This document shows positions 16,427 to 60,911 of a DNA stretch of 64,000 bases, piece by piece (positions within the stretch are counted from its first letter, which is position 1; the number at the start of each line of letters is the position of its first letter). The DNA is from Rhynchopus sp. YZ270_cl-10 (taxonomy: Eukaryota). Under the pieces are notes generated by a model, which made no database searches, was not told the DNA's origin, and was given only the letters and a program-made list of their open reading frames with translations. The stretch covers positions 806,001 through 870,000 of the forward strand of contig OZ037844.1 of assembly GCA_964035575.1 (NCBI GenBank), written 5' to 3'. The position numbers and the translations under genes are program-made.

Positions 16427-19400
16427 AATACAAAACCCTCTCGTGAACAGTGTAGATTGGTATACAAATGAGACCGGCTGTACCGGGGGTGGATACCCAC
16501 TATGCAGTCCTACATCCATTTTGTGGTTTACATCTGAAAAAAAGGGGGGTGGAGGTTAATATGATGAATCGAGTGCGGCAACATGTCCAGCAGTAAAGCA
16601 GGCTAGTGGAGGTCATGTTCGCATAGAAAAAGAACGTTTTCGTCTGAAGGGCAGAAATAAGCGAGTGCACAAAGGGGGAGAGGGAATAAAAAGTCTAAGG
16701 CACTTTGGGCCATCTCTGATCATCTCCGTGAGACACACAACAGGCTGTGAGAGCTTGTGAGGTCCTGTTCGTGAATGATGGGTTTGCTGTTGGTGGGTCT
16801 GCTTACACCGTGCTCGAGAGCACCTGCACCACACTTGTACGTTGTTTGCGCCTCGCAGCGGACAACGCAGTCTCACCGGCCCTCGTCTTGTGGTTCACGT
16901 CCACCTCAGGCAAGCCCACAAGATAGCGCACAGTCTCGGTACGTCCGAAATATGCCGCAAGGAAAAGACACGTGCGCCCGTCGTTGTCTGTGACACACAG
17001 TCCCGCACCTGCTTCGACCAACATCGTCACAAGTTCTAGTTCCCCTACCTCACAAGCACAAGCATGGTGAAGAGGTGAACGTCCCTCCTCGTCCTTTGCT
17101 TCGATGTCTGCACCTGCATCAATCAGCACCTGCACCACACTTGAGTGCTTCTTGAACACAGCGGTGTGCAGTGCAGTCCATGTGTTGTCAGCTGACTGAT
17201 TCACATCCACCTCAGGCATGCACAGAAGAGCACGTGCAGTCTCGGTGTGTCCAAAACGAACTGCATGCATAAGACATGTGTCTCCGTCATTGTCTGTGAC
17301 ACACACTTCCGCACCTGCTTTGACTAACACCTTCACCACATCGAGTGCCCCTTCCTGGCTGGCCAAGAGCACAGGCGATTCTTCATTCACGCCTTTCACC
17401 TCGATGTCTGCACCTGCATCAATGAGCACCTTCACCACTTCGGGATGGTTTTCTTGAGCTGCAAAGTGCAACGCAGTGAAGTTGTCCTCTTCTGAGTGAT
17501 TCACATCCACCTCAGGCAAGCCAACAAGATAGCGCACAGTCTCGGTGTGTCCGAAATATGCCGCAAGGGTAAGACACGTGTCACCTTCGTTGTCTGCGAC
17601 ACACACTTCCGCACCTGCTTTGACCAACACCTTTAGAACACGGAGATTCCCAAACTCACTCGCCTGGAAGAGTGGGGAACGTCCGTTGTTGTGCTTTACC
17701 TCAATGTCAGCCCCTGCATCAATGAGTACCTCCGCCACTTCAGGATGGTTTTCTTGAGCTGCAATGTGCAACGCAGTGAGGCTGTCATCCCCTGAGTGAT
17801 TCACATCCACCTCAGGCACGGTTACAAGATAGCGCACAGTCTCGGTGTGTCCGAAAGATGCCGCAAGGGTAAGACATGTGCCTCCTTCAGTGTCTGTGAC
17901 ACATACTTGCGCACCTGCTTTGACCAACATCTTCACAATGGCGAAGTTTCCTAAAATACTCGCCCTGTGCAGAGGTGAACGTCCTTCCTTATCCTTTACC
18001 TCGATGTCTGCACCTGCATCAATGAGCACCTGACACACTGCAGGGTCCTCCCACATGGCTGGACACGGTCTATTACCTTTGCTACGTAACTCTAACCCAT
18101 GTGGGACAAACGCAACGTCGCTGCAGACTGACTTCCAATGCTGCAAGAGGACCTCCGTGCACGCAGTGTGGTCTGCGTGGATGCACTCACTCAGCAGCAT
18201 CCCGAAGCCCATCTGCGTTGTCTCAACATACGGAAGAAGCAGTGCGAGGCATTCATCGTGGTTCCCTCTGCATGCCTCGTGCACAGCATCGAAGGCAACC
18301 GTTTTGCTGTCTGTGTCTGGGCCGAGCTTCTCAAGTCCCGCCCGCACGGCAGTCGTGTCGCCGTTCCTGGCAGCCTCCACCAAGACCTCGTCTGCAGAAA
18401 GTGTGGTGCTGTTTGATGCCTTCTCGTCAGGTGTGCTGTCTGCATGTTGCTCCTTTGACATGGTTTGTGAAGATGTTGATATTCAATGTTGTGTCTTTTA
18501 TGATGTTTCTTTTTGTGGAGGTTGTGAGGTGAGTGGTGGGTAATACTTGGGTAATACCTGTTTTTCTGCCTTGGCGTGACTGTGTAGAAGTGCTCCAAAC
18601 ACTCCACTCTGGGTGCCAATTGAGGTGTATGGGGAGAGGGAGGGGGAGGAAAAGAGGAAAGGTTGCTTCTGTCTGTATCGACGTTTGTCTATGTTCTGTT
18701 TCTGGATATTGCTTTTTTTCTTGGCGAGGAGAGAAGGTGTTCCTCGATCAGACGGAGAAAAAGAAAGAGGAGTTGAAACGTACTCAAACAACTCGGTCGT
18801 ACTCATGCTGGGTTAGGGTGGGACGTTCGAGCGTTCCGTACCGGGACGCAGGCACTGACACTCCGTGGGTTATCGAACCCCGGAGTGTTGCGCTTGGGAG
18901 TGGTTTACAGGGAAGCTGTAAGCAGGTAATCAGTCATTACCCCACCCTGCCCGGGAAGGGGGGACAACATGATTTAATACAAAAGCCCTCTCGTGAACAG
19001 TGTAGATTGGTACAAATGAGACCGGCTGTACCGGGGGTGGGTACCCACTATGCAGTCCTACATCCATTTTGTGGTTTACATCTGAAAAAAAGGGGGGTGG
19101 AGGTTAATATGATGAATCGAGTGCGGCAACATGTCCAGCAGTAAAGCAGGCTAGTGGAGGTCATGTTCGCATAGAAAAAGAACGTTTTCGTCTGAAGGGC
19201 AGAAATAAGCGAGTGCACAAAGGGGGAGAGGGAATAAAAAGTCTAAGGCACTTTGGGCCATCTCTGATCATCTCCGTGAGACACACAACAGGCTGTGAGA
19301 GCTTGTGAGGTCCTGTTCGTGAATGATGGGTTTGCTGTTGGTGGGTCTGCTTACACCGTGCTCGAGAGCACCTGCACCACACTTGTACGTTGTTTGCGCC

Positions 19401-20120
19401 TCGCAGCGGACAACGCAGTCTCACCGGCCCTCGTCTTGTGGTTCACGTCTACCTCAGGCAAGCCCACAAGATAGCGCACAGTCTCGATGTGTCCGAAATA
19501 TGCCGCAAGGAAAAGACACGTGCGCCCGTCGTTGTCTGTGACACACAGTCCCGCACCTGCTTCGACCAACATCTTCACAAGTTCTAGTTCCCCTACCTCA
19601 CAAGCACAAGCATGGTGAATAGGTGAACGTCCCTTGTCTTCCTTTGCCTCGATGTCTGCACCTGCATCAATCAGCACCTGCACCACACTTGAGTGCTTCT
19701 CCAACACAGCGGTGTGCAGTGCAGTCCAGGCGTCGCCAGCTGACTGATTCACATCCACCTCAGGCATGCACAGAAGAGCACGTGCAGTCTCGGTGTGTCC
19801 AAAACGAACTGCATGCATAAGACATGTGTCTCCGTCATTGTCTGTGACACACACTTCCGCACCTGCTTTGACTAACACCTTCACCACATCGAGTGCCCCT
19901 TCCTGGCTGGCCAAGAGCACAGGCGATTCTTCATTCACGCCTTTCACCTCGATGTCTGCCCCTGCATCAATGAGCACCTTCACCACTTCAGGATGGTTTT
20001 CTTGAGCTGCAAAGTGCAACGCAGTGAAGTTGTCATCTTCTGAGTGATTCACATCCACCTCAGGCAAGCCAACAAGATAGCGCACAGTCTCGGTGTGTCC
20101 AAAATATGCCGCAAGGATAA
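16427..20120. repeat. Tandem duplication: about 16427-17575 is near-identical to about 18976-20120 (offset about 2548)
   Basis: The 3' coding halves and 3' flanks of ANK1 and ANK2 match almost base for base. Confidence 0.9.
16803..18461 (-). CDS. Ankyrin-repeat family paralogue 1 (552 aa, 4 triplet modules)
   Basis: Shared constant N-terminus followed by repeated SPL/TCL/TALH ankyrin triplets. Confidence 0.9.
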   Translation of the reverse strand: MSKEQHADSTPDEKASNSTTLSADEVLVEAARNGDTTAVRAGLEKLGPDTDSKTVAFDAVHEACRGNHDECLALLLPYVETTQMGFGMLLSECIHADHTACTEVLLQHWKSVCSDVAFVPHGLELRSKGNRPCPAMWEDPAVCQVLIDAGADIEVKDKEGRSPLHRASILGNFAIVKMLVKAGAQVCVTDTEGGTCLTLAASFGHTETVRYLVTVPEVDVNHSGDDSLTALHIAAQENHPEVAEVLIDAGADIEVKHNNGRSPLFQASEFGNLRVLKVLVKAGAEVCVADNEGDTCLTLAAYFGHTETVRYLVGLPEVDVNHSEEDNFTALHFAAQENHPEVVKVLIDAGADIEVKGVNEESPVLLASQEGALDVVKVLVKAGAEVCVTDNDGDTCLMHAVRFGHTETARALLCMPEVDVNQSADNTWTALHTAVFKKHSSVVQVLIDAGADIEAKDEEGRSPLHHACACEVGELELVTMLVEAGAGLCVTDNDGRTCLFLAAYFGRTETVRYLVGLPEVDVNHKTRAGETALSAARRKQRTSVVQVLSSTV

Positions 20121-20697
20121 GACACGTGTCTCCTTCGTTGTCTGTAGTACGCACACCCGCACCTGCTTCAATCAACATCTTCACAACTGCGAACTTGCCT
20201 GAAATACTTGCCATGTGCAGAGGTGAACGTCCCCTGTCGTCCTTTGTCTCGATGTCTGCCCCTGCATCAATGAGCACCTGACACACTGCAGGGTCCTCCC
20301 ACATGGCTGGACAGGGTCGGTCTGCTTCTTCCTCCTGCCCGTGTGGGACAAACGCAACGTTGCTGCAGACTGACTTCCAATGCTGCAAGAGGACCTCCGT
20401 GCACGCAGTGTGGTCTGCGTGGATGCACTCACTCAGCAGCATCCCGAAGCCCATCTGCGTTGTCTCAACATACGGAAGAAGCAGTGCGAGGCATTCATCG
20501 TGGTTCCCTCTGCATGCCTCGTGCACAGCATCAAAGGAAACCGTTTTGCTGTCTGTGTCTGGGCCGAGCTTCTCAAGTCCCGCCCGCACGGCAGTCGTGT
20601 CGCCGTTCCTGGCAGCCTCCACCAAGACCTCGTCTGCAGAAAGCTTTCTTCTCTTTGGTGCCTTCTCTGCAGTGCTGTCTGTGTGTCGCTTCGACAT
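19351..20697 (-). CDS. Ankyrin-repeat family paralogue 2 (448 aa, 3 triplets)
   Basis: Start set at MSKRH by homology with the other paralogues (AAACCATG context). Confidence 0.9.
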   Translation of the reverse strand: MSKRHTDSTAEKAPKRRKLSADEVLVEAARNGDTTAVRAGLEKLGPDTDSKTVSFDAVHEACRGNHDECLALLLPYVETTQMGFGMLLSECIHADHTACTEVLLQHWKSVCSNVAFVPHGQEEEADRPCPAMWEDPAVCQVLIDAGADIETKDDRGRSPLHMASISGKFAVVKMLIEAGAGVRTTDNEGDTCLILAAYFGHTETVRYLVGLPEVDVNHSEDDNFTALHFAAQENHPEVVKVLIDAGADIEVKGVNEESPVLLASQEGALDVVKVLVKAGAEVCVTDNDGDTCLMHAVRFGHTETARALLCMPEVDVNQSAGDAWTALHTAVLEKHSSVVQVLIDAGADIEAKEDKGRSPIHHACACEVGELELVKMLVEAGAGLCVTDNDGRTCLFLAAYFGHIETVRYLVGLPEVDVNHKTRAGETALSAARRKQRTSVVQVLSSTV

Positions 20698-21183: not shown

Positions 21184-24100
21184 TCAGGCATGCACAGAAG
21201 AGTACGCACAGTCTCGGTGTGATTTGCTGTGGATGGGTCTGCTGCTGGTGGGTTTGCTGTTGGTGGGTTTGCTGTTGGTGGGTTTGCTGTTGGTGGGTTT
21301 GCTGTTGGTGGGTTTACTGTTGGTGGATGTGCTGTGGATGGGTCTGCTGCTGGTGGGTTTGCTGCTGGTGGGTTTGCTGTTGGTGGATGTGCTGTGGATG
21401 GGTTTGCTGCTGGTGGGTTTGCTGTTGGTGGGTTTGCTGCTGGTGGGTTTGCTGCTGGTGGGTTTGCTGTTGGTGGGTTTACTGTTGGTGGATGTGCTGT
21501 GGATGGGTTTGCTGTTGGTGGGTTTGCTGTTGGTGGGTTTGCTGCTGGTGGGTTTGCTGTTGGTGGGTTTGCTGTTGGTGGGTTTACTGTTGGTGGATGT
21601 GCTGTGGATGGGTTTGCTGCTGGTGGGTTTGCTGTTGGTGGGTTTGCTGTTGGTGGGTTTGCTGTTGGTGGATGTGCTGTGGATGGGTTTGCTGCTGGTG
21701 GGTTTGCTGTTGGTGGGTTTGCTGTTGGTGGGTTTACTGTTGGTGGATGTGCTGTGGATGGGTCTGCTGCTGGTGGGTTTGCTGTTTGTGGGTTTACTGT
21801 TGATGGGTCTGCTGTTGGTGGGTCTGCTGCGCACACCGTGCTTGAGTAGAACCTGCACCACACCTGCATGGTGTTCGTACCTCGCAACGGACAACGCAGT
21901 GTAACCAGCCCTCGTCTTGTGGTTCACATCCACACCCTTCAAACCCACAAGATAGCGCACAGTCTCGATGTGTCCAAATAGGGCGGCAATCATAAGGCAT
22001 GTGTATCCTCGCTTTTCTGTGGCGCACACGTTCGCCCCTACTTTGACCAACATCTTCACAACTGCGAGTGCCCCAGCACCACAAGCAATGTGCAGAAACG
22101 AAAATCCGTTTTCGTCCTTTGTCTCGATGTCTGCCCCTGCATCAAGCAACAAGTGCACAAGATAGCTCATAATCTCGGTTTGTCTACAACAAGCCGCAAG
22201 GAAAAGACACGTGCGCCCGTCGTTGTCTGTGACACACAGTCCCGCACCTGCTTCGACCAACATCGTCACAAGTTCTAGTTCCCCTACCTCACAAGCATGG
22301 TGAATAGGTGAACGTCCCTTGTATCCCTTTGCCTCGATGTCTGCACCTGCATCAATCAGCACCTGCACCACACTTGAGTGCTTCTCCAACACAGCGGTGT
22401 GCAGTGCAGTCCAGGCGTCGCCAGCTGACTGATTCACATCCACCTCAGGCATGCACAGAAGAGCACGCACAGTCTCGGTGTGTCCAAAACGAACTGCATG
22501 CATAAGACATGTGTCTCCTTTGTGGTTTGTGACACACACTCCCGCACCTGCTTTGACTAACACCTTCACAGCATCGAGTGCCCCTTCCTGGCTGGCTAAG
22601 AGCACAGGCGATTCTCCATTCTCGTTCTTTGCCTCGATGTCTGCACCTGCATCAATGAGCACCTCCACTACTTCAGAATAGTTTTCTTGAGCTGCAAAGT
22701 GCAACGCAGTGAAGTCCTCAGCATCCTTGTGATTCACGTCCACCTCACGCAAACTCACAAGATAACGCACAGTCTCGGTGTGTCCAAAATATGACGCAAG
22801 TGTAAGACATGTGTCTCCTTCGTTGTCTGTAGTACGCACTCTTGCACCTGCTTTGACCAACATCTTCACAGTGTCGAGAGACCCGTTCTTGCTGGCCACA
22901 CTCAGGGGCGAATATCCATGCACGTCCTTTGCCTCGATGTCTGCCCCTGCATCGATGAGCACCTTCACCACATCGATGTGTCTTTCGCTCGCTGCACAGT
23001 GCAACGCAGTGTAGCCGTTGTTCTCTGAGTAATTCATGTCCACCTCCGGCAAGCCCACAAGATAGCGCACAGTCTCGGTGTGTCCATTCCATGCCGCCAG
23101 GGTAAGACACGTGTCTCCTACGTCCGCACCTGCTTTGACCAACACCTTCACAGTGCCCAGTGCCCCTGCCTTGCTTGCCATGAGCAGAGGTGAACACCCC
23201 TCCTTGTCCTTTGTCTCGATGTCCGTCCCTGCATCAATCATCAAGTTCACAAGATAGCGCACAATCTCAGTATGCCCATTGGCTCCCGCAAGGAAAAGAC
23301 ACGTGCGCCCGTCGTTGTCTGTGACACACAGTCCCGCACCTGCTTCGACCAACATCTTCACAAGTTCTAGTTCCCCTACCCCACAAGCATAGTGAAGAGG
23401 TGAACGTCCCTTGTCTCCTTTTGCCTCGATGTCTGCACCTGCATCAATCAGCACCTGCACTACACTTGAGTGCTTCTCCAACACAGCGGTGTGCAGTGCA
23501 GTCCAGGCGTCGCCAGCTGACTGATTCACATCCACCTCCTTCAAGCCCACAAGATAGCGCACAGTCTCGGTGTGTCCATTAGCAGCCGCAGATAAAAGAC
23601 ATGTGTCTCCTTTGTTGTCCGCACCTGCTTTGACCAACACCTTCACAGCATCGAGTGCCCCTTCCCTGCAAGCACAGTGCACAGGTGAAGATCCGTCCTC
23701 GTCCTTTGCCTCGATGTCTGCCCCTGCATCAATGAGCACCTCCACCACTTCAGGATAGTTTTCTTGAGCTGCAAAGTGCAACGCAGTCAAGTTGTCATCT
23801 TCTGAGTGATTTACATCCACCTGCGGCACGCTCACAAGATAGCGCACAGTCTCGGTGTGTCCAAAATACGCCGCAAGGGTAAGACACGTGTCTCCTTCGT
23901 TGTCTGTAGTACGCACTCCCGCACCTGCTTTGACCAACATCTTCACAACTGCGAACTTGCCTGAAATACTCGCCCTGAGCAGAGGTGAACGTCCCCTCTC
24001 GTCCTTTGTCTCGATGTCTGCCCCTGCATCAATGAGCACCTGAAACACTGCAGGGTCCTCCCACATGGCTGGACACGGTATCTCATCGTCGCTGTCTTCC

Positions 24101-24465
24101 CCTATCCGGTGTGGGACAAAGGCGACGTTGCTGCAGACTGACTTCCAATGCTGCAAGAGGACCTCCGTGCACGCAGTGTGGTCTGCGTGGATGCACTCAC
24201 TCAGCAGCATCCCGAAACCCATCTGCGTTGTCTCAACATACGGAAGAAGCAGTGCGAGGCATTCATCGTGGTTCCCTCTGCATGCCTCATGCACAGCATC
24301 GAAGGCAACCGTTTTGCTGTCTGTGTCTGGGCTGAGCTTCTCAAGTCCTGTCCGCACGGCCGTCGTATCGCCGTTCCTGGCAGCCTCCACCAAGACCTCG
24401 TCGCCAAGATTTCTTCTCTTTGGTGCCTCATTCTCTGCAGTGCTGTCTGTGTGCTGCTTTGACAT
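21184..24465 (-). CDS. Ankyrin-repeat family paralogue 3 (1093 aa, 8 modules plus S/T/K/P-rich minisatellite tail)
   Basis: Start at MSKQH by homology. Ankyrin array followed by (SKPTN)n. Confidence 0.88.
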   Translation of the reverse strand: MSKQHTDSTAENEAPKRRNLGDEVLVEAARNGDTTAVRTGLEKLSPDTDSKTVAFDAVHEACRGNHDECLALLLPYVETTQMGFGMLLSECIHADHTACTEVLLQHWKSVCSNVAFVPHRIGEDSDDEIPCPAMWEDPAVFQVLIDAGADIETKDERGRSPLLRASISGKFAVVKMLVKAGAGVRTTDNEGDTCLTLAAYFGHTETVRYLVSVPQVDVNHSEDDNLTALHFAAQENYPEVVEVLIDAGADIEAKDEDGSSPVHCACREGALDAVKVLVKAGADNKGDTCLLSAAANGHTETVRYLVGLKEVDVNQSAGDAWTALHTAVLEKHSSVVQVLIDAGADIEAKGDKGRSPLHYACGVGELELVKMLVEAGAGLCVTDNDGRTCLFLAGANGHTEIVRYLVNLMIDAGTDIETKDKEGCSPLLMASKAGALGTVKVLVKAGADVGDTCLTLAAWNGHTETVRYLVGLPEVDMNYSENNGYTALHCAASERHIDVVKVLIDAGADIEAKDVHGYSPLSVASKNGSLDTVKMLVKAGARVRTTDNEGDTCLTLASYFGHTETVRYLVSLREVDVNHKDAEDFTALHFAAQENYSEVVEVLIDAGADIEAKNENGESPVLLASQEGALDAVKVLVKAGAGVCVTNHKGDTCLMHAVRFGHTETVRALLCMPEVDVNQSAGDAWTALHTAVLEKHSSVVQVLIDAGADIEAKGYKGRSPIHHACEVGELELVTMLVEAGAGLCVTDNDGRTCLFLAACCRQTEIMSYLVHLLLDAGADIETKDENGFSFLHIACGAGALAVVKMLVKVGANVCATEKRGYTCLMIAALFGHIETVRYLVGLKGVDVNHKTRAGYTALSVARYEHHAGVVQVLLKHGVRSRPTNSRPINSKPTNSKPTSSRPIHSTSTNSKPTNSKPTNSKPTSSKPIHSTSTNSKPTNSKPTNSKPTSSKPIHSTSTNSKPTNSKPTNSKPTSSKPTNSKPTNSKPIHSTSTNSKPTNSKPTSSKPTSSKPTNSKPTSSKPIHSTSTNSKPTSSKPTSSRPIHSTSTNSKPTNSKPTNSKPTNSKPTNSKPTSSRPIHSKSHRDCAYSSVHA
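21222..21828. repeat. 15-bp coding minisatellite (GGTGGGTTTGCTGTT and variants), about 40 units
   Basis: Directly visible, with higher-order patterning of variant units. Confidence 0.95.
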
Positions 24466-26704: not shown

Positions 26705-26728
26705 CGCCCGAAGGCTAATTTTTTTTTT

Positions 26729-30787: not shown

Positions 30788-33361
30788 TCAGGAAAGTTGT
30801 ATTTCCATTGGTGTCACCTCAGACGCGTTTGGATAGAGAAGAACCTGCGCCACACGATGTCCATGTCTACGTGATGCGACGTGCAACGCAGTCTCGCCCC
30901 CATTAGCTGCGTGATGCACATCCACCTCCGGCAAGCCCACAAGATAGCTCATAATCTCGGTGTGTCCAAAATATGATGCAAGCATGAGACACGTGTTTCC
31001 TACGCTGTCTGTGGTGCGAACTTCGGCACCTGCTTTGACCAACAGCTTCACAATTGCTATTTTCCTGCTCTCACAAGCCACGAGCAAAGGCGAACGACCC
31101 AAGCTGTTCTTTGCCTCAAGGTCTGCCCCTGCATCAACGAGCGCCTGCACCACAGCGGGATGTCCTTTCTTCTTGCCTTCCCAGTGCAACGCAGTCATCC
31201 CGTTCTCATCTGCGTGATTCACGTCCACCCCCGGCAAACCCGCAATATAGCGCAGCGTCTCGGTGCGTCCATAATATGACGCTATGTGAAGACATGTGGA
31301 CCCTTCGTTATCTGTAGCACGCACTTCGGCACCTGCTTTGACCAACATCTTCACAACTGCGATGTTCCCGTTCAGGCAAGCCGTGTGCAGAGGCGACCGC
31401 CCTTTGTCATCCGTTACCTCGATGTCTGCCCCTGCATCAATGAGCAGCTCCACCACGTCTGCAAAAACCTTATGTGACGCAATGTACAGTGCAGTGTCAC
31501 CCCCACTACCTCTGTGATTCACGTCCACCTCAGGTAAAGCAACAAGATAACGTACAGTCTCAGTGTGTCCAAAGTTTGCCGCAAGGATAAGACACGTGTC
31601 TCCTTCGTTGTCTGTGACACGCACTCCTGCACCTGCTTTCACCAACACCTTTATAATCGCAAGTTCCCCGTTCTCACTTGCCAAGTGCAGAGCCGAACGC
31701 CCAATGTTGTTCTTGGCCTCGATATCTGCCCCTGCATCAATGAGCACCTGCAATGCATGGGGATTATGTGTACAGACCAAAGCAGTCTTGCCTAGATTAT
31801 TTTTGCGATTCACGTCCACCTCTGGCAAGCCAAGAAGATAGCGCACAGTCTCAGTGTGTCCAAAAGCAGCCGCAAGGATAAGACACGTGTCACCATCCTG
31901 TCCTATGGCACGCACTTCCGCACCTGCTTTGACCAACAGCTTCACAATATCGAGATGACCTGAGCTACTTGCAAACAGCAGAGGTGAACATCCGTCCTCG
32001 TCTTTTGCCTCGATATCTGCCCCTGCATCGATGAGCACCTCCACCACAGCTGCATGCTTATGCTCCACTGCAGCGTGCAACACAGACAAGCAGTCGTCAG
32101 CTTTGTGATTCACATCCACATCCTTCAGGCCAACAAGATAGCGCACAGTCTCGGTACGTCCAAAATATGCCGCAAGTGTAAGACATGTGTCTCCTTCGTT
32201 GTCTGTGGCACGAACTTCCACACCTGCTTTGACCAACATCTTCACAATTGCTAGTGATCCTGAACGACAAGCAAAGTGCAGGGACGAATGCCCCATGTGG
32301 TCCTTTGCCTCGATATCTGCCCCTGCATCGATGAGCACCTCCACCACAGCTGCATGTTTATGCTCTACTGCAGCGTGCAACGCAGAACAGCGCTCGTCAG
32401 CTTTGCGATTCACATCCACATCCTTCAGGCCAACAAGATAGCGCACAGTTTCGGTGTGTCCACGAGCAGCCGTAGAGAAAAGACATGTGTCTCCATTGCG
32501 GCCCTTGACACACACCTTTGCACCTGCTTTGACCAACATCTTCACAACTGCGAGTGATCCTGAACGACAAGCCAAGTGCAGGGACGAACGCCCCATGTGG
32601 TCCTTTGCCTCGATATCTGCCCCTGCATCAATGAGCACCTCCACCACAGCTGCATGCTTATGCTCCACTGCAGCGTGCAACGCAGACAAGCAGTCGTCAA
32701 CTTTGCGATTCACATCCACATCCTTCAGGCTAACAAGATAGCGCACAGTTTCGGTGTGTCCATGAGCAGCCGTTGATAAAAGACACGTGTCTCCTTCGTG
32801 GTCCGTGACACACACACCCGCACCTGCTTTGACCAACATCTTCACAACTGCGAGTGCTCCTGAACGGCAAGCCAACTGTAGGGACGAACGCCCCAGGTCA
32901 TCCTTTGTCTCGATGTCTGCCCCTGCATCAATGAACACCTGACACACTGCAGGGTCCTCCCACATGGCTGGACAGGGTTGGTCTGCTTCTTCCTCCTGCC
33001 CATGTGGGACAAACGCAACGTTGCTGCAGACTGACTTCCAATGCTGCAAGAGGACCTCCGTGCACGCAGTGTGGTCTGCGTGGATGCACTCACTCAGCAG
33101 CATCCCGAAGCCCATCTGCGTTGTCTCAACGTACGGAAGAAGCAGTGCGAGGCATTCATCGTGGTTCCCTCTGCATGCCTCGTGCACAGCATCGAAGGCA
33201 ACCGTTTTGCTGTCTGTGTCTGGTCTGAGCTTCTCAAGTCCCGCCCGCACGGCAGTCGTGTCGCCGTTCCTGGCAGCCTCCACCAAGACCTCGTCTGCAG
33301 AAATCTTTCTTCTCTTTGGTGCCTTCTCGTCAGGTGTGCTGTCTGCGTGTCGCTTCGACAT
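30788..33361 (-). CDS. Ankyrin-repeat family paralogue 4 (857 aa, 7 triplets)
   Basis: Constant N-terminus. Exact 300-bp periodicity is visible at 32041, 32341 and 32641. Confidence 0.92.
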   Translation of the reverse strand: MSKRHADSTPDEKAPKRRKISADEVLVEAARNGDTTAVRAGLEKLRPDTDSKTVAFDAVHEACRGNHDECLALLLPYVETTQMGFGMLLSECIHADHTACTEVLLQHWKSVCSNVAFVPHGQEEEADQPCPAMWEDPAVCQVFIDAGADIETKDDLGRSSLQLACRSGALAVVKMLVKAGAGVCVTDHEGDTCLLSTAAHGHTETVRYLVSLKDVDVNRKVDDCLSALHAAVEHKHAAVVEVLIDAGADIEAKDHMGRSSLHLACRSGSLAVVKMLVKAGAKVCVKGRNGDTCLFSTAARGHTETVRYLVGLKDVDVNRKADERCSALHAAVEHKHAAVVEVLIDAGADIEAKDHMGHSSLHFACRSGSLAIVKMLVKAGVEVRATDNEGDTCLTLAAYFGRTETVRYLVGLKDVDVNHKADDCLSVLHAAVEHKHAAVVEVLIDAGADIEAKDEDGCSPLLFASSSGHLDIVKLLVKAGAEVRAIGQDGDTCLILAAAFGHTETVRYLLGLPEVDVNRKNNLGKTALVCTHNPHALQVLIDAGADIEAKNNIGRSALHLASENGELAIIKVLVKAGAGVRVTDNEGDTCLILAANFGHTETVRYLVALPEVDVNHRGSGGDTALYIASHKVFADVVELLIDAGADIEVTDDKGRSPLHTACLNGNIAVVKMLVKAGAEVRATDNEGSTCLHIASYYGRTETLRYIAGLPGVDVNHADENGMTALHWEGKKKGHPAVVQALVDAGADLEAKNSLGRSPLLVACESRKIAIVKLLVKAGAEVRTTDSVGNTCLMLASYFGHTEIMSYLVGLPEVDVHHAANGGETALHVASRRHGHRVAQVLLYPNASEVTPMEIQLS

Positions 33362-34985: not shown

Positions 34986-37523
34986 TCACAGTCCTTTGCC
35001 TTCATCTTTGCGTTGTGCCTTTTTCAAACTTTCGATCTCCTCCTTCATCTCCTCCGCAAGCCGCTTACTCTCCTCTGCCATCTTCACGATGTGCTCGCTG
35101 CACTGCCTCACTGTCTCCCTCATCTCAGCACATTCCGCTCTGAGCTCTGCCATGCCGCCTTGTTCCGGCTGCTCCGAGACCGGCGCCGTCTGCTGTGTCG
35201 GCCCCAGCACCCCCTTCTGTGCCTCCAACATCTCCTTCTGCTGGTCCATAACACTCTTCATCATTTCCTGCAGTGCTTTCATTTCCTCCTTCATCGCATT
35301 GCCTTGCTCCAGCGCTGCTTCCAGTGCAGTGTTCCCCAACTTGTCTGTCTGCTTCACGTCCACTTCCGGCAGGTTCATAAGATAGCGCACAGTGTCGGTG
35401 TGCCCTTTAGCAGACGCAATGTCAATATACGTGTCGCCTTCGTTTTGTGCGACACGCACATCCGCACCTGCTTTGACCAACATCTTCACAATTGCCATAT
35501 TCCCGTTCTCGCTAGCCACGTGCAGAGGCGTACGACCCATTTCGTCCTTTGCCTCGATGTCTGCCCCTGCAGCAATGAGCACCTGCACCACATCGACATG
35601 TCCTTCGTCCACCGCACTGTGCAACGCAGTGAAGTCTTTCTCATCTGCAATATTCACATCCACCTCAGGCAAGCCCACAAGATAGCGCACAGTCTCCGTG
35701 CGTCCATTGGCAGCCGTAAGGGAAAGACACGTGTCACCTTTGTTGTCTGTGACACACACATCCGCACCTGCTTTGACCAACACCTTCACAATATCGAGCT
35801 TGCCTCGTTTCCAAGCCCAGAACAGAGGGGAACGTCCCATGTTGTTCTTTGCGTCGATGTCTGCCCCTGCATCAATGAGCACCTGCACCACATCTACATG
35901 TCCTTTGTCCACGGCACTGTGCAACGCAGTGTATCCTTTATCATCTGCAATATTCACATCCACATCCTTCAAGCCCACAAGATAGCGCACAGTCTCCGTA
36001 CGTCCCTTAGCAGACACAATGTGAAGACATGTGCCTCCTGTGTTGTCAGTGGCACATACTTTCGCACCTGCTTTGATCAACAACTTCACTATGCCGAGCT
36101 CGCGTACGCCACTAGCGTAGTGTAGAGGCGAACGTCCCATCTCGTCCTTCACCTCGATGTCTGCCCCTGCATCAATGAGCACCTGCATGAAATCAGGATC
36201 GCTTCCCCAGAAGGATATGGCGTGGAACACCACACTGCAGCCGTCACGCATTTCATTCACATCCACCTGTGGCAAGGCTGCAAGGTAGCGCACCGTCTCA
36301 GTGTGTTTTTTAATCACTGCGAGCTTGAGACAGCCTGCGTCAGCAACTGCGCCTGCTTCGACCAACATCTTCACACGCAAGAGATCGCCACACATGCTCG
36401 CTTTTTCCAGAAGTGAATATCCCCTCTCGTCCTCTACCTCGATGTCTGCCCCTGCATCAACGAGCACCTTCACCACATCTGTACGCTGACGGCGTAGTGC
36501 AGTGAGCAATGCAGAGCGGCGCCCGTTATTGTAGTTCACATCCACCTCCTCCAAGCCCGCAAGGTAGCGCACAGTCTCAGTGTGCTCACTAGTAGACGCA
36601 ACGATAAGACACGTGTCATCTAGATTGTCCGTGGCACGCACACTTGCACCTGCTTCGACCAACATCTTCACAATGTCGAGCTCGCCTAAAGCACTGGCCA
36701 CGTGCAGAGGCGTACGACCCCACTGGCTCTTTGTCTCGATGTATGCCCCTGCATCAATGAGCACCTGCACCACATCTAGGTGTCCTCCGTGCACCGCACT
36801 GTGTAACGCTATGGGGTATTTTCCTTCGCATACGTCCCAATTAGAGCTTTCTTTATTCACATCCACCTGCGGCAAGCCAACAAGATAGCGCACAGTCTCG
36901 GTACGTCCAAAATAGGCCGCAAGCATAAGACACGTGTTACCTTTGTTGTCTGTGGTGCACACTTCCGCACCTGCTTCAACCAACATCTTCACAACTGCGA
37001 GTGCTCCTGATAGACTGCTCATCTTGAGCAGAGGTGAACGTCCCCTCTCATCCTTTACCTCGATGCCTGCCCCTGCATCAATGAGCACCTGACACACTGC
37101 AGGGTCCTCCCACATGGCTGGACAGGGATGAGATGTCTGACCTTCGCAGCCATCCATGTGCCCGTGTGGAACAAACGCAACGTTGCTGCAGACTGACTTC
37201 CAATGCCGCAAGAGGACCTCCGTGCACGCAGTGTGGTCTGCGTGGATGCACTCACTCAGCAGCATCCCGAAACCCATCTGCGTTGTCTCAACATACGGAA
37301 GAAGCAGTGCGAGGCATTCATCGTGGTTCCCTCTGCATGCCTCGTGCACAGCATCGAACGAAACTGTTTTGCTGTCTGTGTCTGGTCTGAGCTTCTCAAG
37401 TCCCTCCAGCACGGCAGTCGTGTCGCCGTTCCTGGCAGCCTCCACCAAGACCTCGTCTGCAGAAAACTTTCTTCTCTTTGGTGCCTTCTTGTCAGGTGTG
37501 CTGTCTGCGTGTCGCTTCGACAT
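34986..37523 (-). CDS. Ankyrin-repeat family paralogue 5 (845 aa, 6 triplets plus C-terminal coiled coil)
   Basis: Constant N-terminus, ankyrin array and E/K/M-rich heptad-like tail. Confidence 0.92.
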   Translation of the reverse strand: MSKRHADSTPDKKAPKRRKFSADEVLVEAARNGDTTAVLEGLEKLRPDTDSKTVSFDAVHEACRGNHDECLALLLPYVETTQMGFGMLLSECIHADHTACTEVLLRHWKSVCSNVAFVPHGHMDGCEGQTSHPCPAMWEDPAVCQVLIDAGAGIEVKDERGRSPLLKMSSLSGALAVVKMLVEAGAEVCTTDNKGNTCLMLAAYFGRTETVRYLVGLPQVDVNKESSNWDVCEGKYPIALHSAVHGGHLDVVQVLIDAGAYIETKSQWGRTPLHVASALGELDIVKMLVEAGASVRATDNLDDTCLIVASTSEHTETVRYLAGLEEVDVNYNNGRRSALLTALRRQRTDVVKVLVDAGADIEVEDERGYSLLEKASMCGDLLRVKMLVEAGAVADAGCLKLAVIKKHTETVRYLAALPQVDVNEMRDGCSVVFHAISFWGSDPDFMQVLIDAGADIEVKDEMGRSPLHYASGVRELGIVKLLIKAGAKVCATDNTGGTCLHIVSAKGRTETVRYLVGLKDVDVNIADDKGYTALHSAVDKGHVDVVQVLIDAGADIDAKNNMGRSPLFWAWKRGKLDIVKVLVKAGADVCVTDNKGDTCLSLTAANGRTETVRYLVGLPEVDVNIADEKDFTALHSAVDEGHVDVVQVLIAAGADIEAKDEMGRTPLHVASENGNMAIVKMLVKAGADVRVAQNEGDTYIDIASAKGHTDTVRYLMNLPEVDVKQTDKLGNTALEAALEQGNAMKEEMKALQEMMKSVMDQQKEMLEAQKGVLGPTQQTAPVSEQPEQGGMAELRAECAEMRETVRQCSEHIVKMAEESKRLAEEMKEEIESLKKAQRKDEGKGL

Positions 37524-38956: not shown

Positions 38957-41761
38957 TCATTTGCCTTCATCTTTGCGGTGTGCCTTTTTCAGACTCTCGT
39001 TCTCCTCCGCAAGTCGCTTACTCTCCTCTGCCAGCTTCACGATGTGCTCGCTGCACTGCCTCACTGTCTCCCTCATCTCAGCACATTCCGCTCTGAGCTC
39101 TGCCATGCCGCCTTGTTCCGGCTGCTCCAAGACCGGCGCCGTCTGCTGTGTCGGCCCCAGCACCCCCTTCTGTGCCTCCAACATCTCCTTCTGCTGGTCC
39201 ATAACACTCTTCATCATTTCCTGCAGTGCTTTCATTTCCTCCTTCATCGCATTGCCCTGCTCCAGCGCTGCTTCCAGTGCAGTGTTCCCCAACCTGTCTG
39301 TCTGCTTCACGTCCACTTCCGGCAGGTTCACAAGATAGCGCACAGTGTCGGTGTGCCCTTTAGCAGACGCAATGTCAATATACGTGTCGCCTTTGTTTTG
39401 TGCGACACGCACATCCGCACCTGCTTTGACCAACATCTTCACAATTGCCTTATTCCCGTTCTCGCTGGCCACGTGCAGAGGCGTACGACCCATGTCGTCC
39501 TTTGCCTCGATGTTTGCCCCTGCATCAATAAGCACCTGCACCACATCGACATGTCCTTTGTCCACCGCACTGTGCAACGCAGTGTAGTCTTCATCATCTG
39601 CAATGTTCACATCCACCTCAGGCAAGCCCACAAGATAGCGCACAGTCTCGGTGTGTCCCTTAGCAGCCGCAATGTTAAGACATGTATTAACTTCGTCGTT
39701 TGCGACACACACTTTCGCACCTGCTCTGACCAACACCTTCACAATGTCGAGCTTGCCTTCTGTACTAGCCGAGAACAGAGGCGTACGACCCATGCCGTCC
39801 TTTGTCATGACGTCTGCCCCTGCATCAATGAGCACCTGCGCCACATCGACACATCCTTTGTACACCGCATGGTACAACGCAGTGTATCCTTTATCATCTG
39901 CCATATTCACATCCACATCCTTCAATCCTGCAAGATAGCGCACAGTCTCACTGTGACCCTGTTGTGCCGCAATGTTAAGACATGTGGCACCTTCGTCGTT
40001 TGTGACACACACATCCGCACCTGCGTTGACCAACACCTTCACAATGCCGAGCTTGCCTCGGTCACTAGCCCTGAACAGAGGCGAGCACCCCTCCTTATCC
40101 TTTGTCTCGATGTCTGCCCCTGCATCAATGAGCGCCTGCATGATTTCAGGATCTTCTTCTGCCCAGAAGTGGGGTAATGCACAGAACACCGCACTGTTGC
40201 CGTCACGCACTTCATCCACGTCCACCTGTGGCAAGCCTGCAAGGTAACGCACCACCTTAGTGTGCCCATTACGCACTGCCATCATAAGACAGGAGTATCT
40301 GCTCTTGTCTGCGTCAGCAACTGCTACGCCTGCCTTGACCAACATCTTCACACGAACGAGATCGCCATACCTGCTCCCACTTTTCAGAAGTGAATATCCT
40401 TCCTCATCCTTTACCTCGGTGTCTGCCCCTGCATCAATGAGCACCTGCACCACATCTGCATGCTTTTTCTGTACTGCGTAGAACAACGCAGTGCGGTTCC
40501 AGTTCCCGTGATTCACGTCCACCTCCGGCAAGCCCACAAGATAGCGCACAGTCTTGATACGTCCCAATCGGGCCGCATGCATAAGACACGTGTCTCCTTT
40601 GTTGTCTGTGGTGCACACTTCCGCACCTGCTTTGACCAACATCTTTACTTTCGCAATTTTCCCGTTCGTGCAAGCCACAAGCAGAGGCGAACGGCCCGTG
40701 TCATCCTTTATTTCGATGTCTGCACCTGCATCAATGAGCACCTGCATCACAGCTGCATGCTTTTCATATACTGCACATAACAACGCTGTGCGGTTCCCGT
40801 TCTTGTGATTCACATCCACCTGCGGCAAGCCCACGAGAAAGCGCACAGTCTCGGTGTGTCCAAAATGCGACGCAAGGGTAAGACATGTGTATCCTCTGTT
40901 ATCTGTGACACACACTCCCGCACCTGCTTTGACCAACAACTTCACAGCATCGAGTGCCCCTTCCCTGCAAGCACGGTGCAGAGGTGAAGATCCCTCCACG
41001 TCCTTTGCCTCGATGTCTGCACCTGCATCAATGAGCACCTCCACCACTTCGGGATAGTTTTCTTGAGCTGCAAAGTGCAACGCAGTGAAGTTGTCATCTT
41101 CTGAGTGATTCACATCCACCCTCCGCAAGCTCGCAAGATAGCGCACAGTCTCGGTACGTCCTAATCGGGCCGCAAGGGTAAGACACGTGTCTCCTGTACT
41201 GTCAGTGGCACGCACTCCCGCACCTGCTTCAACCAACAACTTCACAACTACGAGTGCTCCTGATATACTGCTCGCCCTGTGCAGAGGAGAACGTCCACTC
41301 TCATCCTTTGTCTCGATGTCTGCCCCTGCATCAATGAGCACCTGACTCACTGCAGGGTCCTCCCACATGGCTGGACAGGGTCGGTCTTTCTTGTCCTCCT
41401 GCCCGTGTGGGACAAACGCAACGTTGCTGCAGACTGACTTCCAATGCTGCAAGAGGACCTCCGTGCACGCAGTGTAGTCTGCGTGGACGCACTCACTCAG
41501 CAGCATCCCAAAGCCCATCTGCGTTGTCTCAACATACGGAAGAAGCAGTGCGAGGCATTCATCGTGGTTCCCTCTGCATGCCTCGTGCACAGCATCGAAC
41601 GCAATCTTACTGCTGTCTGTGTGTGAGCTGAGCTTCTCAAGTCCCGCCCGCACGGCAGTCGTGTCGCCGTTCCTGGCAGCCTCCACCAAGACCTCGTCTG
41701 CAGAAAACTTTCTTCTCTTTGGTGCCTTCACTGCAGTGCTGTCTGCGCGTCGCTTCCCCAT
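38957..41761 (-). CDS. Ankyrin-repeat family paralogue 6 (934 aa, 7 triplets plus C-terminal coiled coil)
   Basis: Same architecture as paralogue 5, with a near-identical tail. Confidence 0.92.
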   Translation of the reverse strand: MGKRRADSTAVKAPKRRKFSADEVLVEAARNGDTTAVRAGLEKLSSHTDSSKIAFDAVHEACRGNHDECLALLLPYVETTQMGFGMLLSECVHADYTACTEVLLQHWKSVCSNVAFVPHGQEDKKDRPCPAMWEDPAVSQVLIDAGADIETKDESGRSPLHRASSISGALVVVKLLVEAGAGVRATDSTGDTCLTLAARLGRTETVRYLASLRRVDVNHSEDDNFTALHFAAQENYPEVVEVLIDAGADIEAKDVEGSSPLHRACREGALDAVKLLVKAGAGVCVTDNRGYTCLTLASHFGHTETVRFLVGLPQVDVNHKNGNRTALLCAVYEKHAAVMQVLIDAGADIEIKDDTGRSPLLVACTNGKIAKVKMLVKAGAEVCTTDNKGDTCLMHAARLGRIKTVRYLVGLPEVDVNHGNWNRTALFYAVQKKHADVVQVLIDAGADTEVKDEEGYSLLKSGSRYGDLVRVKMLVKAGVAVADADKSRYSCLMMAVRNGHTKVVRYLAGLPQVDVDEVRDGNSAVFCALPHFWAEEDPEIMQALIDAGADIETKDKEGCSPLFRASDRGKLGIVKVLVNAGADVCVTNDEGATCLNIAAQQGHSETVRYLAGLKDVDVNMADDKGYTALYHAVYKGCVDVAQVLIDAGADVMTKDGMGRTPLFSASTEGKLDIVKVLVRAGAKVCVANDEVNTCLNIAAAKGHTETVRYLVGLPEVDVNIADDEDYTALHSAVDKGHVDVVQVLIDAGANIEAKDDMGRTPLHVASENGNKAIVKMLVKAGADVRVAQNKGDTYIDIASAKGHTDTVRYLVNLPEVDVKQTDRLGNTALEAALEQGNAMKEEMKALQEMMKSVMDQQKEMLEAQKGVLGPTQQTAPVLEQPEQGGMAELRAECAEMRETVRQCSEHIVKLAEESKRLAEENESLKKAHRKDEGK

Positions 41762-52711: not shown

Positions 52712-53075
52712 TGTCGGGTGGGAGATGGGGTGGGCTATGTGAGGTGAATCGAGTGAGGGGGGCTTAGAAAAATGTGGTAAGAAAAATGGTTGGTTCTCTC
52801 TGTATTGCTTTGGAAAATGGGAGGGGTTTTTTTTTCTGAAAAAGGCGGTCATGAATTGTCTTGTTGGTGGTGTTCAAAGTTTTACTCATGATATGCCTTT
52901 ATTTACATAAACTGGACAGAGCAGGGGGGTACGTTACGGTGCACATGAAAAGCACTTATTTTTCTTTGTCGACATCAAGAGAATGAGGGGGGGCAATGAC
53001 TTTGCTTGAGATTACAACTCATCCATATCAAAACTAGTTTTTTTCTTCTTCTTCTTTTGCTACTTTAATTTTAGT

Positions 53076-55670: not shown

Positions 55671-56917
55671 TCCTGGGGGATAGTGTTGTGCGGGGAGGGG
55701 GAGGGAGGATGGGGAAGGAATGAGGTCAGGACAGTGAAGTAAGTTGGACGATGTGAAAAGAGTGAGCTTGGCGTTTTCCAGTAGAGGTAGAGTGGGGCAA
55801 ATATAGGCGGTACACTTGTACAAATACCCACGATGTGACCCACTGTGTCACACTATGTAAATTAAAGTCCTAGGTGGCCATAAGGCTCAAACCCTCGGAA
55901 CAACAAGGCTCCTCGAAGTGTTACGCCCGCCAGTCCATTCGGACTCGTATAGACCCGGTTGGAGGTAAAAAGATTAAAAAAATATGTCACTTGAGGGGGG
56001 GTTTTCCAGATTTACAAAAAAAGCTACGCTGGGTAGAGAGAGAGAGGGGTAACAGTACAAATAAAAAGAGAAAATTTTGGTAAAGATGATTCTAAGTATC
56101 ACGTACTTAGGTCACACCTACAATAAAAAGTGGAGATTTGCACAAAACTGCGGCAACACAACCGAGGCAACTACACTCCAACAATTTATCAAAAAAAAAA
56201 AAGAAAAAAAAGGTGGGTAAGATGAATCTAAGCATCTGTTCAATCACCTTTGAAGTGGGGAAAAGTCTGTCGTGATGTTTTGTTTGAGACAAAAAAAATT
56301 GAAGCGGGGCCGGAAAGTGAATCCGGAAGACCCGTTGATGCTTCGTGGGGGATGGGAATATGGGCTCTAAATACACACAAAACACATAGCATGCGACATG
56401 GGTGGTGGGGGGTGGGGAAGAGGGGGGGGTGACAGCTGTCCTAGCTGCTGAGGCGGCGTACGGGGTGGGTGGTGTCCTCCAGAGCTGGGTGGCTGGGCTG
56501 TTTAGGAACCTTGCTCGCAGGTGTCTTTGAGGGGCAGGGTTGGATACGTTCAGTTCGTGGAGACAAAACGCAGGGCAGAAAGCACAAAGCACAATGCCCG
56601 CAGCTATCGCGCAATTCCCTTTCCACTACGCTCAGAGAAGAGGAGTGTTCATGCGAGCCTGTTAAGGGGTGGGTATTGCTTTATGGTACACGCTATTACA
56701 GACTGAACAGAAATCCTGTTTGCAGGCGCGCAATTTTAAATACACAATGGAACGGTGCATAAAAGTATGGCAGATATGCAATTACATTTTCTGAAGAAGG
56801 CGCTAAATTATAAAACCACATCTGGGGATATTCCACACCTTGCCCCAAAAACTGTTGCAACATCAGCACCAACCCATAACAAAAAAAAAAAAAATGATTT
56901 ATTATTTTGACCACTCT

Positions 56918-58068: not shown

Positions 58069-59163
58069 CTAACTGGCATCGGTGTCAGTATCAGTGTCAT
58101 CACATTCAGCACCAACGTCTGCCCCTGCATCAATGAGCAACTTCGACACATCTGAGTGCTTCATTGACACTGCGTAGTGCAGTGGAGTTAAGCCGCTGTT
58201 ATTTGACTGATTCATATCCACCTCAGGCATGCACAGAAGAGTGCGCACAGTCTCGGTGTGTCCACAGTACGCTGCGTACACAAGACATGTGTCTCCTATG
58301 TTGTCTGTGACGCACACTTCCGCACCTGCTTTGACCAACAACTTCACAGCATCGAGTGACCCTTCCCTACAAGCACGGTGCAAAGGTGAAGATCCATCCT
58401 CGTCCTTTGCCTCGATGTCTGCACCTGCATCAATGAGCACCTCCACCGCTTCAGTATAGTTTTCTTGAGCTGCAAAGTGCAACGCAGTGAAGTTCTCATC
58501 TTCTGAGTGATGCACATCCACCTCAGGCACGGTCACAAGATAGCGCACAGTCTCGGTGCGTCCGAAACATGCCGCAAGCGTAAGACATGTGCCTCCTTCG
58601 TTGTCTGTGACACACACTCCCGCACCTGCTTTGACCAACATCTTCACAACTGTGATCGTGCCTGAAATGCTCGCCCTAAGCATAGGTGAACGTCCATCCT
58701 CATCCTTTGTCTCGATGTCTGCCCCTGCATCAATGAGCACCTGAAACACTGCAGGGTCCTCCCACATGGCTGGACAGGGACGAGGTGCATTACCTTGGAC
58801 CTGCCCGTGTGGAACAAACGCAACGTTGCTGCAGACTGACTTCCAATGCTGCAAGAGGACCTCCGTGCACGCAGTGTGGTCTGCGTGGACGCACTCACTC
58901 AGCAGCATCCCGAAGCCCATCTGCGTTGTCTCAACATACGGAAGAAGCAGTGCGAGGCATTCATCGTGGTTCCCTCTGCATGCCTCGTGCACAGCATCGA
59001 AGGAAACCGTTTTGCTGTCTGTGTCTGGGCTGAGCTTCTCAAGTCCCGCCCGCACAGCAGTCGTGTCGCCGTTCCTGGCAGCCTCCACCAAGACCTCGTC
59101 TGCAGAAAGCTTTCTTCCCTTTGGTGCCTTCTCTGCAGTGCTGTCTGCGTGTCGCTTCGACAT
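58069..59163 (-). CDS. Ankyrin-repeat family paralogue 7 (364 aa, 2 triplets)
   Basis: Constant N-terminus plus ankyrin repeats. Confidence 0.88.
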   Translation of the reverse strand: MSKRHADSTAEKAPKGRKLSADEVLVEAARNGDTTAVRAGLEKLSPDTDSKTVSFDAVHEACRGNHDECLALLLPYVETTQMGFGMLLSECVHADHTACTEVLLQHWKSVCSNVAFVPHGQVQGNAPRPCPAMWEDPAVFQVLIDAGADIETKDEDGRSPMLRASISGTITVVKMLVKAGAGVCVTDNEGGTCLTLAACFGRTETVRYLVTVPEVDVHHSEDENFTALHFAAQENYTEAVEVLIDAGADIEAKDEDGSSPLHRACREGSLDAVKLLVKAGAEVCVTDNIGDTCLVYAAYCGHTETVRTLLCMPEVDMNQSNNSGLTPLHYAVSMKHSDVSKLLIDAGADVGAECDDTDTDTDAS

Positions 59164-59852: not shown

Positions 59853-60911
59853 TCAATCAACCTCTGCCCCTGCATCAATGAGCAACTTCGACACATCTGA
59901 GTGCTTCCTTGACACTGCACGGCGCAGTGGAGTGAGGCCACTGTTATTTGACTGATTCACATCCACCTCAGGCATGCACAGAAGAGCACGCACAGTCTCG
60001 GTGTGCCCCCAGTACACTGCGTACATAAGACATGTGTCTCCTATGTTTTCTGTGACACACACTCTCGCACCTGCTTTGACCAACAACTTCACAGCATCGA
60101 GTGCCCCTTCCCTGCAGGCACGGTGCAGAGGTGAAGATCCTTCCTCGTCCTTTGCCTCGATGTCTGCACCTGCATCAATGAGCACCTCCGCCACTTGAGG
60201 ATGGTTTTCTTGAGCTGCAAAGTGCAACGCAGTGAGGTTGTCCTCTTCTGAGTGATTCACATCCACCTCAGGCAAACTCACAAGATAACGCACAGTCTCG
60301 GTGTGTCCGAAATATGCCGCAAGCGTAAGACACGTGTCTCCTTCGTTGTCTGTAGTACGCACTCTTGCACCTGCTTCAACCAACATCTTCACAACTGCGA
60401 ACTTTCCTGAAGGACTCGCCCTAAGCAGAGGTGAACGTCCCCTCTCGTCCTTTGTCTCGATGTCTGCCCCTGCATCAATGAGCACCTGACACACTGCAGG
60501 GTCCGCCCACATGGCTGGACACGGTCTATTACCTTTGCTATCTTCCGCTAACCCATGTGGGACAAACGCAACGTTGCTGCAGACTGACTTCCAATGTTGC
60601 AAGAGGACCTCCGTGCACGCAGTGTGGTCTGCGTGGACGCACTCACTCAGCAGCATCCCGAAGCCCATCTGCGTTGTCTCAACATACGGAAGAAGCAGTG
60701 CGAAGCATTCATCGTGGTTCCCTCTGCATGCCTCGTGCACAGCATCGAAGGAAACCGTTTTGCTGTCTGTGTGTGAGCTGAGCATCTCAAGTCCCGCCCG
60801 CACGGCAGTCGTGTCGCCGTTCCTGGCAGCCTCCACCAAGACCTCGTCTGCAGAAATCTTTCTTCTCTTTGGTGCCTTCTCTGCAGTGCTGTCTGTGTGT
60901 CGCTTCCCCAT
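59853..60911 (-). CDS. Ankyrin-repeat family paralogue 8 (352 aa, 2 triplets)
   Basis: Constant N-terminus plus ankyrin repeats. Confidence 0.88.
   Translation of the reverse strand: MGKRHTDSTAEKAPKRRKISADEVLVEAARNGDTTAVRAGLEMLSSHTDSKTVSFDAVHEACRGNHDECFALLLPYVETTQMGFGMLLSECVHADHTACTEVLLQHWKSVCSNVAFVPHGLAEDSKGNRPCPAMWADPAVCQVLIDAGADIETKDERGRSPLLRASPSGKFAVVKMLVEAGARVRTTDNEGDTCLTLAAYFGHTETVRYLVSLPEVDVNHSEEDNLTALHFAAQENHPQVAEVLIDAGADIEAKDEEGSSPLHRACREGALDAVKLLVKAGARVCVTENIGDTCLMYAVYWGHTETVRALLCMPEVDVNQSNNSGLTPLRRAVSRKHSDVSKLLIDAGAEVD

Follow-up and report, generated by a model that had tools for sequence, protein, structure and literature searches.

An ankyrin-only gene family with a constant head and a positively selected binding face in a contig of Rhynchopus sp. 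YZ270_cl-10

The window analysed here is a stretch of 64,000 nucleotides from Rhynchopus sp. YZ270_cl-10 (assembly GCA_964035575.1, contig OZ037844.1, positions 806,001 to 870,000 of the forward strand), and it harbours eight intact-reading open reading frames (ORFs), G1 to G8, all on the minus strand, whose products share a head followed by copies of a 100-aa module of three ankyrin repeats (A, B and C). Cut at the LIDAGADIE-type anchor, G1 to G8 carry 4, 3, 8, 7, 6, 7, 2 and 2 modules, 39 in total, which recovers the set given in a preliminary description of this DNA (2, 2, 3, 4, 6, 7, 7 and 8). The eight genes are not one block, as unrelated genes intervene. G1 (16803..18461, 552 aa), which has KASNSTT in place of the basic motif of the head, is 94.5% identical in DNA to G2 (19351..20697, 448 aa) over 1.3 kb, 3' flank included. 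The longest product is that of G3 (21184..24465, 1093 aa), which contains an internal duplication and lacks repeat C in two of its modules (70 aa each). Its SKPTN tail (21223..21829, minus strand) was rejected as a domain, since it is the read-through of a minisatellite with about 40 copies of a 15-bp unit; after the minisatellite lies, out of frame, an orphan ankyrin fragment of 30 aa (21135-21224). G4 (30788..33361, 857 aa) owes its modules 1-3 to recent internal duplication, and G5 (34986..37523, 845 aa) and G6 (38957..41761, 934 aa) end in the same tail of ~100 aa, which appears coiled-coil-like from its sequence. G7 (58069..59163, 364 aa) has an acidic tail, and G8 (59853..60911, 352 aa) is its tandem duplicate (91% over 1.5 kb). 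Upstream of all eight start codons there is an A/C-rich leader of about 55-70 nt in two variants (60912..60980, minus strand, in G8). A tblastn search of the window retrieved the eight heads, the 39 modules and the orphan fragment, with no ninth head across the 64 kb.

The modules are mostly exactly 100 aa long (33+34+33), and Tandem Repeats Finder (TRF) reports repeat periods of 285-303 bp. Pfam matches to ankyrin in the three window genes scanned have E-values of 1e-50 to 1e-145, far beyond chance; AlphaFold models a continuous solenoid with a predicted local distance difference test score (pLDDT) of 88; and the best match in the PDB, in sequence as well as in fold (Foldseek), is a designed ankyrin repeat protein (DARPin). 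All three approaches thus place the products among the ankyrin repeat proteins, that is, solenoids of a 33-residue helix-loop-helix unit. Amino-acid identity is 0.88-0.98 (mean 0.94) in the head core versus 0.35-0.95 (mean 0.57) in the modules. The near-invariant head announced in the preliminary description is therefore real, but the exact KAPKRRK motif said to accompany it occurs in only five of the eight genes, the linker is rich in indels, and the head is itself degenerate ankyrin. The framework segments likewise proved conserved in part: LIDAGADIE is present in 27 and LV[KE]AGA in 32 of the 39 modules, but exact GHTETVRYL in only 13.

The G8 copy of the head (60492..60851, minus strand) consists of three degenerate ankyrin repeats, a variable linker and a half repeat, and is preceded by an N-terminal basic segment (60852..60911, minus strand) that fits KR-x10-KRRK, which we take to be the pattern of a bipartite nuclear localisation signal (NLS) and which would predict nuclear import. 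Modelled alone, the head is predicted (pLDDT 80.5) to form three short-looped ankyrin repeats, a disordered linker and a half repeat. Its fold matches RFXANK (Z 11.8, root-mean-square deviation 2.5, 86 aligned), the Pfam match to Ank_2 being weak; a comparison with a protein atlas also shows resemblance to ankyrin, and the matches listed by a fold search are ankyrins only, which leaves room for other folds. The linker varies between 5 and 19 aa (118 distinct sequences among 141 scored), and this length-variable loop sits beside the binding face. At positions 9, 10, 13 and 14 the entropy is 0.33 in the head repeats versus 3.09 in the modules (199 heads), and the head evolves with omega 0.39 (0.39-0.40, p=0.003). 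The bipartite NLS pattern occurs in five of the eight window genes, and a non-basic segment replaces the basic one in 26 of 199 heads. The earlier suggestion of a nuclear location is weakened by this swap and by the presence of an NLS-like motif in only about half of the heads. None of the eight window products has a hydrophobic, signal-peptide-like stretch in its first 25 aa (maximum Kyte-Doolittle value, KD, 0.01) or a clear membrane helix.

Selection was measured at the DNA level on the 39 modules, with site classes fixed before testing: the face (positions 2, 3, 5, 13, 14 and 33, the DARPin positions, the register later being checked against a DARPin alignment), positions 9-10 of helix 1, the outer surface and the core. 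The codon analyses were our own implementations rather than PAML, and cells next to indels were masked in the site-mixture test and after. Pairwise, tree-free dN/dS is 2.02 on the face (site bootstrap 1.38-2.91), 2.20 at positions 9-10 (1.60-3.35), 0.86 on the outer surface and 0.43 in the core, with dS of 0.43, 0.46, 0.31 and 0.45, respectively, so that the face shows no excess of dS; its dN/dS falls to 1.29 when only the 30 closest pairs are taken. In simulations of a neutral face with recombination, run on six different trees, the mean was 1.13 and the observed 2.02 was not attained once in 549 replicates; positions 9-10, taken alone, attained their observed value in 2% of the runs. Codon maximum likelihood (ML) with one tree per repeat yields a face omega of 1.83 (p=2e-12), which becomes 1.82 (p=2e-4) with class-specific synonymous rates and 1.81 (p=1e-4) when double and triple hits are allowed, and the outer surface is close to neutral across the analyses (0.63-0.86). 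A site mixture, run on a grid with nucleotide-derived branch lengths, prefers M8 over M8a (2dL=85.9), with omega 2.5 on 19% of sites. Thirteen of the 100 sites have a posterior probability (PP) above 0.95 (A2, A3, A10, A13, A14, A16, A29, B3, B9, B13, C5, C10 and C13). A published DARPin library randomises positions 2, 3, 5, 10, 13 and 14 (PMC3308923), and ten of the 13 selected sites lie within the corresponding 18 positions (Fisher p=6e-7), which bears out the earlier proposal that the variable positions are those randomised in DARPins.

At the protein level the same pattern is seen across 755 modules from 198 proteins, with an entropy of 3.06 bits on the face, 2.79 at positions 9-10, 1.41 on the outer surface and 1.01 in the core. 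Modules are nearly all unique in this set, partly by construction, because the database is clustered at 90%. Three artefacts were considered as sources of the signal and rejected: local hypermutation, as dS on the face equals that of the core; multi-nucleotide changes, as the signal persists with double and triple hits; and indel misalignment, as cells beside indels were masked. We conclude that amino-acid replacements in the beta-turn and helix 1 are selected for, the framework being conserved; the diversification of the binding face foreseen in the preliminary description is thus confirmed, variation being neither uniform nor tied to a dN/dS at or below 1.

New arrays arise from exchange as well. 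Within a module, the closest relatives of A, B and C are not the same: in module 2 of G3, for instance, A is 94% identical to module 2 of G8 and G6, B 85% to module 1 of G4, and C 99% to module 2 of G2 and module 6 of G3 itself. The farther apart two sites lie, the weaker is their linkage (p=0.0005; p=0.006 for third positions), and family-wide, of the 53 pairs from different proteins whose A repeats are almost identical, ~16 (30%) have C repeats less than 70% identical. Genes swap single repeats, so the modules are indeed shuffled, as had been supposed, with the refinement that exchange also occurs inside them. Three pairs of whole genes (G1/G2, G5/G6 and G7/G8) are tandem duplicates with common flanks.

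The family is far larger than the eight members initially reported. A search with the head found 240 proteins of 193-616 aa (120 of them among the matches listed) and 71 of 617-2000 aa, that is, at least 311 members. All listed relatives come from ENA contigs, of about 39 lengths by a hand count over the 191 matches listed, and the family probably derives from one intron-poor eukaryote genome or assembly; many members are on contigs of the same length as the window's own. An exhaustive search of a 1.84-billion-entry library gave 63 matches, 29 of them at E<=1e-10, and the remainder, at 29-43% identity, are mostly generic ankyrins; the exceptions beyond about the 29th match are P0217 (43%), P0194 and P0234. 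In P0194 and P0234 the NLS and the first head repeat are joined straight to repeat B, most of the head being missing, and in P0201 the head is joined to an unrelated region of 250 aa without a Pfam match. No relatives of the head were found among the viral or metagenome contigs searched. Among 216 proteins, a head with four modules (51) or three (44) is commonest, the maximum is ten modules, and 14 proteins have two heads. Head and modules cover almost all residues of these proteins, and long tails are rare and of low complexity. The tails do differ from one another, in line with the preliminary description, but they are mostly caps, truncations, minisatellite read-through or one coiled-coil-like type, and no signalling domain was seen in them. 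There was no Pfam match to NACHT or NB-ARC in the three window genes and ten relatives scanned; extra Pfam domains in the relatives were rejected, non-ankyrin matches having no passing stretches.

Ankyrin arrays serve as substrate-binding parts in ankyrin-F-box proteins (PRANC, Legionella AnkB) and ankyrin-SOCS-box proteins (ASB), and lamprey variable lymphocyte receptors (VLRs) are modular repeat receptors. Unlike the former, the window family has no F-box or SOCS box that we could find; unlike VLRs, all eight genes are complete germline ORFs with their own head and stop, and a single orphan fragment of 30 aa occurs in the 64 kb. With no nucleotide-binding oligomerisation domain (NOD), no F-box and no features of somatic assembly, the family is neither a family of NOD-like receptors (NLRs) nor of VLRs, and the analogy drawn at the outset holds for the mode of repeat evolution but not for membership. 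Shuffled repeats and positive selection on the concave face, both seen in the window genes, are features of NLR-type sensors. The NLR ankyrin arrays of Podospora (Pa_3_8560 and Pa_2_8180; Dyrka et al. 2014, PMC4986451) resemble the window genes in that repeat number varies, repeats recombine and the concave side is positively selected at its inner helix and beta-hairpin. The Podospora proteins also possess NACHT and effector domains, and their arrays are built of single repeats that are nearly identical. In the window family, which has no NOD domain, the unit comprises three repeats, identity within an array is low, the ankyrin head is constant and the paralogs number in the hundreds. The high internal conservation of the fungal arrays (at least 85% over at least 100 aa) was not found for module pairs of any of the eight window genes (best 0.84) and was reached in 14 of the 189 multi-module proteins of the family.

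Nematode F-box substrate adaptors, proposed to act on microbial proteins (PMC8120010; Thomas 2006, as cited there), are likewise a large lineage-specific family with purifying selection on a constant N-terminal part and positive selection on the binding part; the window family differs in lacking an F-box and in that its constant part is ankyrin with a putative partner. The 90-bp-exon leucine-rich-repeat (LRR) genes of Tetrahymena (Xiong et al. 2019; PMC6564038) offer a parallel in a unicellular eukaryote, with a species-specific repertoire, changes of repeat number by ectopic recombination and a proposed response to biological challenge, whereas their repeats are LRRs with one exon each and ours are 300-bp units in intronless ankyrin ORFs; the main text of that paper nowhere uses the phrase 'positive selection'. 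There is also a likeness in design to DARPin libraries (PMC3308923 and PMC8229355; further background in PMC10542815), in which a cap and a variable number of framework-constant repeats are combined and positions 2, 3, 5, 10, 13 and 14 diversified. Unlike DARPins, the window family is natural, has three distinct repeat types, keeps position 33 of repeat C constant and shows selection also at A16, A29 and B9. We found no description of the ankyrin family in the literature searched, most subscription journals being outside its coverage, and neither PMC10161547 nor bioRxiv 10.64898/2026.01.29.702485 has the word 'ankyrin' in its main text; the supplements of the papers may refer to ankyrin expansions. 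What emerges is an ankyrin repertoire without effectors for which selection on the DARPin face has been measured and whose mode of evolution is known from other systems.

As to its role, we consider it somewhat better than an even chance (roughly 55%) that this germline, ankyrin-only family of several hundred members is a binder library directed, inside the cell, at quickly changing foreign or selfish proteins, candidate targets being viruses, endosymbiont effectors or transposon products. Tandem duplication, in a birth-and-death fashion, and recombination at the level of repeats build new arrays, and diversifying selection gives these a multitude of different binding faces, the frame remaining constant. 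Each array may bind a different target, while the head, three ankyrin repeats in which the counterpart of that face hardly varies, would plausibly dock one shared host partner, making the proteins adaptors comparable to F-box or KRAB proteins; otherwise targets might simply be sequestered. About half of the members would be imported into the nucleus, and the driver would be an arms race with invaders.

Several points weigh against this proposal. The omega of the head is not below that of the module core (0.43), and for the same 28 gene pairs dS is 0.067 in the head and 0.31 in the core of module 1. The constancy of the heads can thus be explained in large part by low synonymous divergence, the heads being younger or homogenised, and hence without a shared partner. 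P0217, the outlying relative closest to the family, lacks the head pattern with E at position 10, and the NLS-like motif characterises only about half of the heads (bipartite in 89 and monopartite in 95 of 199). On the side of selection, the pairwise estimator is biased upward by about 13% under the null, positions 9-10 alone give p=0.07 in the strictest codon ML test, and all estimates are among paralogs of one genome, from eight genes only. A cap-like C-terminal helix is found, by a crude pattern, in only 116 of 199 head-bearing proteins, so that many members may be pseudogenes. Pfam detected no effector, F-box, PRANC, SOCS-box or NOD domain in the three window genes, the ten relatives or the tails, which leaves the output step of a binder without explanation, and positive selection shows an arms race, not the identity of the opponent.

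An identical selection signal would be expected if the arrays tracked fast-evolving proteins encoded by the host itself (selfish elements, drive or toxin-antidote factors, chromatin proteins) and served internal conflict or host regulation, for which KRAB zinc fingers provide a parallel. The intact hAT-type transposase gene in the window, several intergenic stretches that draw very many contigs from DNA runs and the NLS-like motif fit this idea; we nevertheless regard it as doubtful, given that ankyrins bind protein and not DNA, that no repressor domain was found and that the motif is exchanged for a non-basic segment in some heads. Offensive effectors sent into prey or host cells, the NLS aiming at a foreign nucleus, would agree with the same motif and with the enrichment of ankyrin proteins in symbionts and intracellular bacteria (PMC4986451), but the absence of signal stretches and membrane helices from the eight products, and the setting of the genes, whose neighbours are ordinary nuclear ones that include a gene with a spliceosomal-type intron, make such a use improbable.

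We find it slightly more improbable that the family mediates self/non-self or mating recognition within the species, in the manner of fungal het genes. The evolutionary regime is that of the Podospora repeat arrays (PMC4986451), but there are hundreds of paralogs instead of a few multi-allelic loci, neither death nor NOD domains, and few proteins with a module pair at or above 85% identity. Finally, neutral or selfish expansion by unequal crossing over, with a face that varies since it is unconstrained, could account for the many truncated members, for the near-neutral outer surface and for a face that is the most variable part in any ankyrin alignment; yet face omega exceeds 1 in four analyses with dS not raised, and core and head are under purifying selection, so that this explanation is very improbable and for these eight genes largely refuted. 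If the proposed binder library exists, it bears on the largely open question of how viruses, endosymbionts and selfish elements are recognised within the cells of free-living protists. The residue-level arms-race signature means that targets could be fished with single members, the constant head providing one bait for downstream machinery, and as a natural arrival at the DARPin design the 755 modules show which residues are used at each paratope position.

A second family is represented in the window by a gene with LRR_5 repeats (53076-54473, minus strand, by Pfam). Its first 120 aa match at least 312 proteins, and the 120 listed are all from ENA, several of them on contigs whose lengths also occur in the ankyrin family. 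The head of this family is ubiquitin-like, some of the listed proteins having a Pfam match to ubiquitin, while leads from the atlas were all under 0.9. The listed proteins have a head entropy of 0.79; across 356 LRR units, values of 3.2-3.8 bits occur at four neighbouring, hypervariable positions, and a C-terminal bipartite NLS-like motif is present in 86 of 120 proteins. The design is that of the ankyrin family on a different scaffold, BspA-type LRRs. A tentative and rather unlikely extension is that both families together (more than 300 ankyrin and more than 300 ubiquitin-like/LRR proteins), with constant docking heads, NLSs and recombining, selected faces, would constitute, on two independent scaffolds, an NLR-free, antibody-like intracellular recognition system of a single-celled eukaryote, by which foreign nuclear proteins would be delivered to one common disposal machine.

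Recognisable protein genes, most of which lack introns, are all on the minus strand across the 64 kb, as in co-transcribed clusters. A ZIP zinc transporter gene (50455-51800, minus strand) has a 165-nt GT-AG intron at about 51195-51359, from which it follows that the window is eukaryotic. An intronless gene (1654-5370, minus strand) encodes a 1238-aa membrane protein that is hydrophobic at its ends, has a PA domain as well as cysteine-rich repeats and presumably resembles the KIAA1324/ELAPOR type; it has no relative among the metagenome contigs searched, and a RING protein is a further neighbour. The one-strand cluster, the GT-AG intron and the short leader recall Diplonema papillatum, for which PMC10161547 reports co-transcribed clusters, introns in 41% of genes and 5' untranslated regions (UTRs) near 70 bp; on these features a diplonemid-like (Euglenozoa) host is somewhat more likely than not. 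The hAT-type transposase (DUF659) is an intact ORF of 726 aa (7583-9763), on either side of which a 10-bp unit forms arrays in inverted orientation (7320-7378 and 9909-9938), and the whole element (7320-9938) is, from these features, likely a young DNA transposon.

Several intergenic stretches (48900-50270, 51642-52098, 53927-54840, 55755-56211 and 61239-62600) draw very many contigs from the DNA runs; one has a poly-T end near 51906, with many loose ends, and they are likely elements akin to short interspersed nuclear elements (SINEs) or miniature inverted-repeat transposable elements (MITEs). Rfam and tRNA matches were absent from the window. Between 48900 and 62600, runs X6 and X7 gave only short, low-depth pieces, and runs X1 and X4 cover unique stretches about 94-110x with 0 differing letters in all 16 pieces listed; X1 and X4 thus behave as DNA of the window's own strain, and the assembly is supported there. 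A perfect tandem array of an 8-bp unit, about 41 copies, occupies 48510-48836.

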